Shown here: positions 12,552 through 12,681 of the stretch, piece after piece
How positions within the stretch are numbered: position 1 is the first letter of the stretch
Layout: the number at the start of each line of letters is the position of its first letter
Assembly: GCA_001819435.1 (NCBI GenBank)
Contig: MHMT01000013.1
Span: 1 to 48,420, forward strand
DNA: 48,420 nucleotides
DNA from: Candidatus Portnoybacteria bacterium RBG_13_40_8
GTDB taxonomy: Bacteria; Patescibacteriota; Minisyncoccia; RBG-13-40-8-A
Direction of reading: 5' to 3'
Notes under the pieces: model-generated
What the model was told of the DNA's origin: nothing
What the model saw: only the letters and a program-made list of their open reading frames with translations
Database searches by the model: none
Made by a program: the position numbers and the translations under genes

Positions 12552-12681
12552 AGATTTATTTTACACTGAGACAATTTCGGAGGCCAAAAGCATGGTTTTT
12601 GCCAAAGGCAAAATTTTGACCGAGAATTAGTGCGTTCCGACGCTGGTCGGAACGACACGTGTCGACATGTAAAATAAATCT
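12552..12681. repeat. Structured intergenic repeat, family 1, copy 1 (130 nt)
   Basis: Perfect 14-bp terminal inverted arms, AGATTTATTTTACA (12552..12565) and TGTAAAATAAATCT (12668..12681). A conserved core is shared with copies at 13891..14028 and 47527..47657. The 9-bp GC hairpin is CGTTCCGAC-GCTG-GTCGGAACG at 12633..12654. Confidence 0.85.

Follow-up and report, generated by a model that had tools for sequence, protein, structure and literature searches.

Copies of a structured repeat next to stop codons

The window, a 48,420-nt stretch of contig MHMT01000013.1 from Candidatus Portnoybacteria bacterium RBG_13_40_8, contains three copies of a structured repeat, numbered 1 to 3 and all lying on the plus strand. 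An earlier note on this DNA had reported three copies in the same orientation; all of them were located, with the start of copy 3, given as 47527, corrected by one base to 47528. As whole elements, scored with the covariance model of the family described below, copy 1 (with its outer helix) occupies 12547..12686 (164 bits), copy 2 occupies 13891..14028 (154 bits) and copy 3 occupies 47523..47662 (172 bits). A 16-mer, GACAYGTGTCGACATG, occurs three times in the window against 0.15 occurrences expected, and no other repeat families of note were found there.

Each copy is bounded by terminal arms (12552-12565 and 12668-12681 in copy 1, 13891-13909 and 14010-14028 in copy 2, 47528-47541 and 47644-47657 in copy 3), which, as the note had stated, differ among copies and are perfect reverse complements inside each copy. 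The order of modules that it gave along the element was also found to be correct on re-inspection of all three copies, and so was its description of a 9-bp stem that differs at six of nine positions (CGTTCCGAC/GTCGGAACG in copy 1, CAGCCACCC/GGGTGGCTG in copy 2, CGGCCCCGC/GCGGGGCCG in copy 3), with all changes compensated and with the GCTG loop and both flanks identical. Paired deletions in copy 2, taken by the note as a sign of a further helix, do fall in a real 8-bp helix, P3a (GGCAAAAT/ATTTTGCC in copy 2 versus GGCCAAAA/TTTTGACC in copy 1). The architecture therefore stands as first proposed, except that the extra helix P3a/P3b has to be added and that the terminal helix is longer than claimed, being extended in copies 1 and 3 by GGC..GA / GA..GCY, which overlaps the stop codon. 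Compared with shuffled versions, the window copies have fold z-scores of -7.6 to -8.6 on either strand.

The layout is best followed in copy 1 (all positions on the plus strand). The 5′ strand of its closing helix P1 (12547..12565) consists of the outer GGC, a tandem-mismatch GA and the 14-nt arm AGATTTATTTTACA, and pairs with the 3′ strand (12668..12686), which reads TGTAAAATAAATCT, then GA, then GCT; the last two bases of the latter overlap the reverse complement of the TAG stop (12685-12687). Next come a 4x4 internal loop, with CTGA (12566..12569) on the 5′ side and GACA (12664-12667) as its partner, and helix P2, in which GACA (12570..12573) pairs with TGTC (12660-12663). P2 opens into a three-way junction with strands AT (12574-12575), TTA (12627..12629) and G (12659). 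The middle domain (12576..12626) comprises P3 (TTC/GAA), the 8-bp P3a with one C·A, the bulge GCATGG(T) and the P3b hairpin (TTTTGCC-AAA-GGCAAAA). P4 (12630..12658) has a GTG/CAC base, a bulged A (12655) and the hypervariable 9-bp stem, capped by the loop GCTG (12642-12645). The corresponding variable stem-loops lie at 13975..13996 in copy 2 and at 47609..47630 in copy 3.

The minus-strand stops that the note had placed at 12685, 14032 and 47662 were confirmed. Copy 1 has the stop of a small membrane-protein open reading frame (ORF; 12685-12945, minus) on one side and the start of mnmA (~12540, minus) on the other. Copy 2 adjoins the stop of a DnaJ-like ORF (14032-14622, minus), and a promoter-like site (13884-13856, minus) for the ORF 13521-13826 lies on its other side. 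To the right of copy 3, an ORF resembling class II fructose-bisphosphate aldolase ends with its stop at 47662 and runs off the window end; to the left are a promoter-like stretch and the Shine-Dalgarno (SD) sequence plus ATG (~47459) of the next minus-strand gene. The names of these genes, like those of alaS and dnaK in the same window, are presumptive and were given by the look of the ORF translations only.

One fold in a large family

The element was found by a three-block DNA pattern at 11 loci, spread over 5 species genomes that carry the labels Candidatus Saccharibacteria, Patescibacteria group or unclassified metagenome-assembled genomes, and a second, different pattern found it in 74 metagenome DNA stretches. 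A covariance model built from 14 copies was then searched over 525 kb of these loci, which reach up to ~13 kb around the pattern matches. This search gave 97 strong matches (61-176 bits), including copies that neither pattern had demanded. The family has at least 90 distinct copies at no fewer than 29 insertion sites, and the length of the element ranges from 117 to 157 nt. No reading frame is conserved across copies. On the plus strand, GGAGG-N8-ATG begins a 12-codon frame in copies 1 and 3 that is frame-shifted in copy 2, and half of the family has GCAGG; on the minus strand, indels interrupt an ATG frame. Neither was accepted as a coding sequence.

Pairs were counted on 96 distinct sequences with the refined structure. 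A single fold was confirmed for all family copies, and the covariation behind it is overwhelming: pairing is kept in 95.8% of the pair cells, and changes on both sides occur in 47 of the 51 pairs. None of 500 shuffles reached any of the covariation measures, sliding the partners by 1-3 columns lowered pairing to 34-47%, and a blind mutual-information scan returned exactly the modelled pairs as its top column pairs. The note had argued for selection on a single-strand fold, as opposed to decaying duplicates or terminal inverted repeats (TIRs) recognised by a transposase, and covariation of this strength bears it out.

From the outside inwards, the fold begins with an outer 3-bp helix, a 2x2 tandem G·A mismatch and the 14-bp P1, together a closing helix of 18-22 bp; the terminal arms measure 14-22 bp and are paired in every copy. 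The 4x4 internal loop CUGA/GACA, present in 81 of 88 copies, is followed by the 4-bp helix P2 (GACA/UGUC), which leads into a three-way junction with strands AY, UUA and G. The first arm of the junction is the middle domain, with P3 (UUC/GAA), the 8-bp P3a, the conserved GCAUGG bulge and the P3b hairpin; P3a occurs as GGCCGAAA/UUUCGGCC, as GGCAAAAU/AUUUUGCC or, with another tandem G·A, as GGCCGAGC/GCGAGGCC. The second arm, P4, has a GUG/CAC base, a bulged A, the 9-bp hypervariable stem and the GCUG loop (82 of 86 copies). Short forms of ~117-131 nt have a plain hairpin in place of the whole middle domain, and in four of five of them the P4 loop is no longer GCUG. In a divergent form the 4x4 loop is closed into a helix, AAGAC/GUCUU. 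A pseudoknot of the GCAUGG bulge with GACAUG was considered and rejected, as the two do not covary and the variants GCACGG and GACAAG are unmatched to one another.

Around the compact three-way junction, ~40 unpaired or junction nucleotides are nearly invariant and the helices vary freely. Such a pattern might be expected of a new class of self-cleaving ribozyme, or of another catalytic or ligand-binding RNA residing inside a repeat, and the altered P4 loop of the short forms may point to a tertiary contact. Hammerhead and twister ribozymes of bacteria, too, are found between genes and in repeats. However, the mutual-information scan detected no tertiary pair beyond the modelled helices, and a scan of the whole window with Rfam 15 at the gathering score returned only six tRNAs and an L10 leader. 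With the threshold relaxed to E<=10, the region 12300-14300 (copies 1 and 2) gave nothing relevant on either strand, ribozymes included; in these same scans the models of hammerhead, twister, twister-sister, pistol, hatchet, hairpin and hepatitis delta virus ribozymes did not match the element. Nor does it contain a hammerhead core, CUGANGA: the stretch CTGAGAC does not fit it. We consider a ribozyme or ligand-binding RNA very improbable. The note had recognised no named RNA family and proposed a scan against Rfam, and its impression agrees with these results. In addition, a pattern scan of viral contigs was without any match to the element, and no description of it was found in the literature, searched by topic and by sequence string.

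The favoured strand

According to the note, the evidence on the functional strand was evenly divided. This does not hold for the family, in which the mismatch spectrum and the folding energy statistically favour the plus strand. Read on that strand, the pair cells contain 117 G·U versus 46 A·C. Scored a single time for each site family and column, they stand at 85:35 (p=6e-6), and the changes that took place inside a site family give 61:25 (p=1e-4). Purine-purine mismatches outnumber pyrimidine-pyrimidine ones by about 100 to 14 on the plus strand, where tandem G·A recurs in three places within helices, and 45 of 90 copies have a C(GNA)G loop on P3b. Calculated with RNA parameters, folding is stronger on the plus strand in 86 of 90 copies, by a mean of 5.7 kcal/mol; with DNA parameters this is so in 88 of 90. 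The composition of sense-strand four-fold sites (T 0.34, A 0.27, C 0.21, G 0.18) does not support a mutation bias as the source of the G·U excess. The selected fold is thus favoured to be that of the window plus strand, antisense to the neighbouring genes.

Position relative to genes

The association with stop codons, whose disappearance with more copies would have counted against the note's reading, persists: in 77 of 91 distinct loci, the stop of a gene on the opposite (minus) strand adjoins the right end of the element. The distance between the two is -1 to +7 nt in most of the 47 loci with a canonical end. The junction is co-directional at 43 loci and convergent at 10, and the orientation to genes is reversed at three loci at most, one of which is the divergent copy L010:928 (related loci carry L numbers here). 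The adjoining stop is TAG in 24 of 47 cases versus 24% of all long ORFs (p=5e-5), and it often pairs with the left flank, lengthening P1 (window 12685-12687, 14032-14034 and 47662-47664, and related loci). Flank positions are weakly biased, towards TTR on one side and the stop codon on the other. The upstream genes belong to at least 29 unrelated families that look housekeeping-like in sequence; we take them, by their look, to include GlcD-like, MurF, LigT, glycosyltransferase, FtsW, RlmE, aldolase, DnaJ, Fpg, APRT, RNase III, hydrogenase and ClpB-like genes. Pfam, run on the ten genes of locus L016 alone, confirmed the FtsJ/RlmE and phosphoribosyltransferase assignments. The upstream genes gave no sign of a functional link, the ~29 families being housekeeping-like and unrelated to each other.

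Spacing on the downstream side is bimodal. Either an ATG without an SD sequence lies 4-14 nt away (mnmA at copy 1), or the gap is ~60-70 nt long and contains a strong promoter of the TTGACA-17-TATAAT type, as at copies 2 and 3; for roughly half of the copies, what comes next is a strong promoter and not a coupled gene. Just upstream of the element, matches to sigma-70-like promoters, the type to which this test was limited, are no commoner than at random positions on either strand (82 copies). A scan of 12300-14300 found no intrinsic terminator at the elements and canonical ones elsewhere in that region, and the flanks of the elements have no T-run. The promoter and terminator that would mark an independent small-RNA gene are hence both lacking.

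Since the element follows the stop codon directly, is often succeeded by the next promoter and sometimes separates convergent genes, it might be suspected to be a factor-independent terminator of the upstream gene. The note had dismissed a plain terminator for want of a U-tract after the hairpins, and this observation holds for every window copy; after the element there is no U-tract on either strand, whereas the same genome possesses canonical terminators made of a hairpin and a T-run. Moreover, several copies lie 4-14 nt before the next start inside apparent operons, and the element is far more complex than a terminator hairpin. A role of this kind is extremely unlikely.

A second explanation places the element in the sense polycistronic mRNA (window minus strand) as a cis-acting part. 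Its closed fold would bring the stop near the next start or SD sequence, and it might serve RNase III-type processing, stabilise the 3′ end or preserve translational coupling after the insertion. The rule of orientation to the upstream gene, the lack of an own promoter, the stop codon often lying inside the P1 extension with its excess of TAG and the copies placed 4-14 nt from an SD-less ATG are all consistent with this, as are the short stop-to-start distance at empty sites (2-6 nt, see below) and the presence of an RNase III-like gene, named by sequence alone, among the flanking genes. On the other hand, the mismatch spectrum and the energies favour the opposite strand: in the sense transcript, the internal mismatches that recur turn into U·C/C·U and A·C, which are destabilising. 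The strong promoters behind about half of the copies, where a coupled gene would be expected, also disagree with it. We regard a cis-acting sense-mRNA element as possible but doubtful.

Two side observations concern the downstream flank. Copies with an SD-less ATG 4-14 nt away (binned up to 30 nt) mostly carry the TGTAAAAT arm (window 12538-12565 and related loci). This arm contains a -10-like hexamer facing the gene and is found in 10 of 16 copies near starts versus 7 of 31 distant ones (Fisher p=0.011, relatedness uncorrected), a hint that mnmA may have an outward-facing promoter and a short-leader mRNA. Separately, L063, L075, L073, L062, L061, L015 and L056 have A/T-rich heptamer runs, (GAAAATT/GAAATTG)n, in the stretch from the element to the downstream start, and such a run also occurs at L016:4290-4350. 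The run at the mnmA site of L063 is absent from its window orthologue (copy 1).

Selection at shared sites

Selection was assessed on 97 copy pairs at nine orthologous sites. Four-fold sites of the adjacent gene are 47% identical in these pairs (43% in pairs with <85% amino-acid identity), whereas unpaired columns of the element are 90% and paired columns 77% identical. When columns forced by the search patterns are left out and only metagenome copies are used, the values are 88% and 72%, respectively. Variants of the outer helix are site-specific, in that they are common to several genomes at one site and still paired; the MurF site, for instance, has GGATAAAAA/TTTTTATCC, and the glycosyltransferase site has GATATCG/CGATATC. 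Because the identity of the element is far above that of four-fold sites, the copies are under purifying selection at each locus, acting on the fold and on the invariant unpaired bases. Conservation together with site-specific variants also means that selection for transposition alone is insufficient.

Traces of past mobility

Whether an orthologous junction holds the element varies with the genome. In the window (~27195, within ~27170-27200) and in L037, the MurF-tRNA junction is empty, and it is filled in L003, L005, L055 and L070; among other site pairs, L049, L069 and L076 are empty versus L050, L007 and L077 filled. Where the element is absent, only 2-6 nt separate the stop from the next start. 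Remnants of deletions were also found: L025 (~5848) has kept only the two ends of the element, GCGAA|TAATCTGAGC, and L038 (~3165) has a solo left end where L010 holds the full, divergent copy. About ten P4 'barcodes', each tied to an arm type, recur at unrelated sites and thereby define sub-families. Locus L016 contains a second family of ~290 nt (2436-2722, 3560-3785, ~4350-4632 and 10996-11150) that shares the ~30-nt left and right ends and has a different interior with a conserved core, AGCAAAGCCAACAATTATTTCGGAAA; one truncated copy stands directly against a family-1 copy. This second family has no Rfam match and no consistent ORF, and it is absent from the window. Among 37 independent flanks, no direct repeat of 2-4 nt exceeded chance at any offset. 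The elements are insertions with a mobile past that did not leave target-site duplications. The note had recognised no named MITE (miniature inverted-repeat transposable element) and had judged against transposase-recognised TIRs; to its picture of a selected fold, the clear marks of past mobility have to be added. The element is thus both a once-mobile repeat of the MITE kind and a fold, not one or the other.

Two further details of the junctions may be recorded here. At the MurF-like/tRNA junction, filled and empty sites do not agree in the final one or two codons of the upstream protein. The junction downstream of the presumed APRT gene (L073 ~1230-1330; L075 ~12450-12800) is a hot spot whose contents differ by genome: nothing, a family-1 copy, a family-2 copy, a small ORF with a terminator, or a GC-rich structured stretch ending in a terminator.

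A selfish, non-autonomous element that moves via folded single-stranded DNA (ssDNA), or via complementary DNA, would have its fold in the service of mobility and not of the host. The fold would then be read by a recombinase or transposase that leaves no duplication, as with the ends of IS200/IS605, REP/REPIN-RAYT, attC or CTX attP. The lack of target-site duplications, the filled and empty sites, the sub-families, the second family with the same ends, the covarying terminal repeats and the strong orientation bias are all compatible with such a life style. Furthermore, G·T pairs, tandem G·A mismatches and C(GNA)G triloops are stable in DNA, and the favoured strand carries all three. Against it stands, above all, the identity of resident copies at orthologous sites, which is far above neutral, along with the site-specific helix variants. 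In addition, the folded strand is apparently the leading-strand template (judging from gene direction and skew), opposite to IS608-type elements, and its ends have neither the R boxes of attC nor, at the 5′ end, the GTAG that stands beside a REP palindrome. No transposase, recombinase or reverse transcriptase is present among the ten genes of L016, the sole multi-copy locus examined, all of which are ordinary cellular genes according to Pfam, and no longer, protein-coding element with the same ends was found among the loci examined. A selfish element of this type is improbable.

MITEs are defined by a size of <200-400 bp, the lack of a transposase gene, TIRs, flanking direct repeats, the occurrence of filled and empty sites and terminal repeats shared with an autonomous IS or transposase (PMC3184786). 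An ordinary cut-and-paste MITE would have TIRs as transposase sites and a foldability incidental to its palindromes. The element has the corresponding size (117-157 nt), TIRs, no conserved frame, an intergenic place and both filled and empty sites. The flanking target-site duplication is missing, however. The ends differ between copies and yet remain complementary within each copy, and TIRs that vary with compensation are unlike a protein-binding TIR; internal helices covary as strongly as the ends, unpaired bases are more conserved than paired ones, and the mismatch spectrum is strand-asymmetric. The plain MITE, like the terminator, fails the direct tests and is scarcely credible.

Relation to described repeats

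REP and REPIN sequences, on which Bertels and Rainey have worked, are short extragenic hairpin repeats at gene 3′ ends that make no target duplication, have compensated hairpins and persist for long in a lineage. A REP is a palindrome of 20-40 nt with a conserved GTAG on its 5′ side, REPINs are inverted pairs of these that form simple bulged hairpins, and RAYT is of the Y1 HUH type. The element resembles them as a hairpin-forming repeat at gene 3′ ends with compensated changes and no duplication, but it is a branched three-way junction of ~140 nt and not a pair of short palindromes. GTAG is absent from the 5′ end of its consensus, the only GTAG-like sequence being the reverse-strand CTAA in the invariant junction TTAGTG.

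Integron attC sites lie directly after the stop of the preceding gene and flank mobile gene cassettes next to an intI integrase gene. What is recognised in them is a single strand, folded and antisense to the genes of the cassettes; they keep their structure while varying in sequence, with unpaired spacers and a variable terminal structure. The position after the stop and a folded strand antisense to the genes are shared with the element as favoured here. However, the attC boxes RYYYAAC (R'') and GTTRRRY (R') are absent from its ends, which in gene sense read GCTCRG.../...CYTCGC. The element is also flanked by syntenic housekeeping-like genes (presumed MurF, FtsW, DnaJ, RlmE, Fpg and aldolase) and not by cassettes, it alone is present or absent at a site, and its core sequence is strongly conserved. 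PATE elements derived from IS200/IS605 have no TIRs, carry different subterminal hairpins at each end and have a fixed 4-5-nt target 5′ of the left end. With long terminal inverted repeats and weakly biased flanks, the element does not fit their description.

The bcr1 repeats of the Bacillus cereus group are ~155 bp long, interspersed, intergenic and unevenly distributed among related genomes; compensatory changes keep a cruciform-like fold at the RNA level, and 5-bp direct repeats flank them (PMC3184786). Compared by description only, bcr1 shares with the element its size, its interspersed intergenic spread and its compensated fold, and differs in its 5-bp direct repeats, of which the element has none, and in its phylum. 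Further features that set the element apart from bcr1 are a three-way junction with conserved unpaired bases, the tight contact with stop codons and a favoured strand that is antisense. Correia/NEMIS, ERIC/RU and BOX repeats measure 100-170 bp, possess TIRs, are co-transcribed and form long stem-loops, and some of them are substrates of RNase III or RNase E or carry promoters (partly after PMC3184786). Their terminal repeats are conserved and they have target duplications (TA for Correia), in contrast to the covarying ends and lacking duplications of the element, which moreover has a conserved three-way-junction core and is under purifying selection at orthologous sites, unlike MITEs that act as RNA. 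The closest described systems are bcr1-type repeats, RNA-acting MITEs and REP/REPIN sequences. The element has neither the duplication of MITEs, nor the characteristic sequences of REP and attC, nor the features of a terminator, and it matches nothing in Rfam.

A candidate module at gene 3′ boundaries

That the family is uncatalogued, folded, inserted and under selection at its loci, all at once, is very probable. Judging from sequence and placement, it is best read as a MITE/REPIN-like element that may have been kept as a single-strand module at gene 3′ boundaries; whether this would be an RNA module, on either strand, is a question on which the chances look about even to us. Because it lacks an own promoter, the element would be transcribed as a part of neighbouring transcripts. 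A trans-acting protein or RNase might then recognise the invariant junction and loop bases, and this recognition could define, protect or block the ends of transcripts in the interval that separates the stop codon from the following promoter or start. If the plus strand is the active one, the element would act on antisense or convergent read-through transcripts that enter a gene from its 3′ side, and its weaker sense version would be read through.

Several points weigh against such an RNA module. The favoured plus strand lacks a promoter of its own, the flanking genes run in the opposite direction and the sense transcript holds the minus version, which is a conflict; gene context, taken alone, would point to the sense strand. 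A three-way junction of ~140 nt is more elaborate than a simple barrier or stabiliser needs. The copy number is modest, with three copies per 48 kb here and three strict pattern matches in a metagenome contig of 522.9 kb. As regards fold and selection, the alignment was fitted to the covariance model and leans toward structure, the calibration is rough, the copies are related, so that cell counts exceed the number of independent events, and the search patterns fix ~25 bases of the element. At some orthologous sites, most positions of the P4 stem differ between genomes and are fully compensated; such different barcodes indicate that replacement or gene conversion also occurs, and gene conversion among copies could contribute to the conservation.

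A narrower proposal is that the element is a host-maintained, strand-specific structured nucleic acid, with its functional fold antisense to the adjoining genes, be it a barrier, an ssDNA site or a ribozyme. This is unlikely. If true, it would leave three candidate roles: a polar RNA barrier or processing module, acting solely on transcripts that enter a gene from its 3′ side; a folded-ssDNA site for a Patescibacteria recombinase; or a new, repeat-borne class of ribozymes. Any of the three would be without a described counterpart in bacteria and specific to the ultra-small genomes of the candidate phyla radiation (CPR). The element belongs with the structured interspersed repeats of bacteria, and the chance that its mechanism is new is small but real. 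The fold is best on a strand without an obvious reason for being transcribed, and explaining this might bring a new mechanism to light.

The genomes of Saccharibacteria and other CPR bacteria are tiny and tightly packed, and to our knowledge almost nothing is known about their non-coding RNA or mobile DNA. Each copy adds ~140 bases to gaps that otherwise measure 2-6 bases, yet the element is intact across deep divergence; it therefore seems to be useful at gene boundaries, or harmless there. With ~90 aligned copies, a well-supported fold whose junction bases are invariant, naturally occurring short forms and sites both with and without the element, the family is a test case in which the ending, processing and insulation of transcripts, as well as the spread of repeats without duplications, could be studied.

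Other features of the window

Rfam matches place an L10 leader at 40010-40145 (minus) and six tRNA genes at 27098, 35823, 41834, 42542, 42622 and 42760 (minus). Nearly all genes of the window are likewise on the minus strand. Between two small ORFs, at 13530-13480 (-), there is a canonical intrinsic terminator (AGGGGCATAAGCCCCT+TTTTC) with a TTTACC-17-TATAAT promoter directly behind it, so that standard signals are in use in this organism. At 12437-12460 (+), inside the mnmA coding region and antisense to it, CTTTTTT comes after a 9-bp hairpin; the structure is terminator-like, gives weak matches to L20 leaders and may be due to chance or be an antisense terminator.

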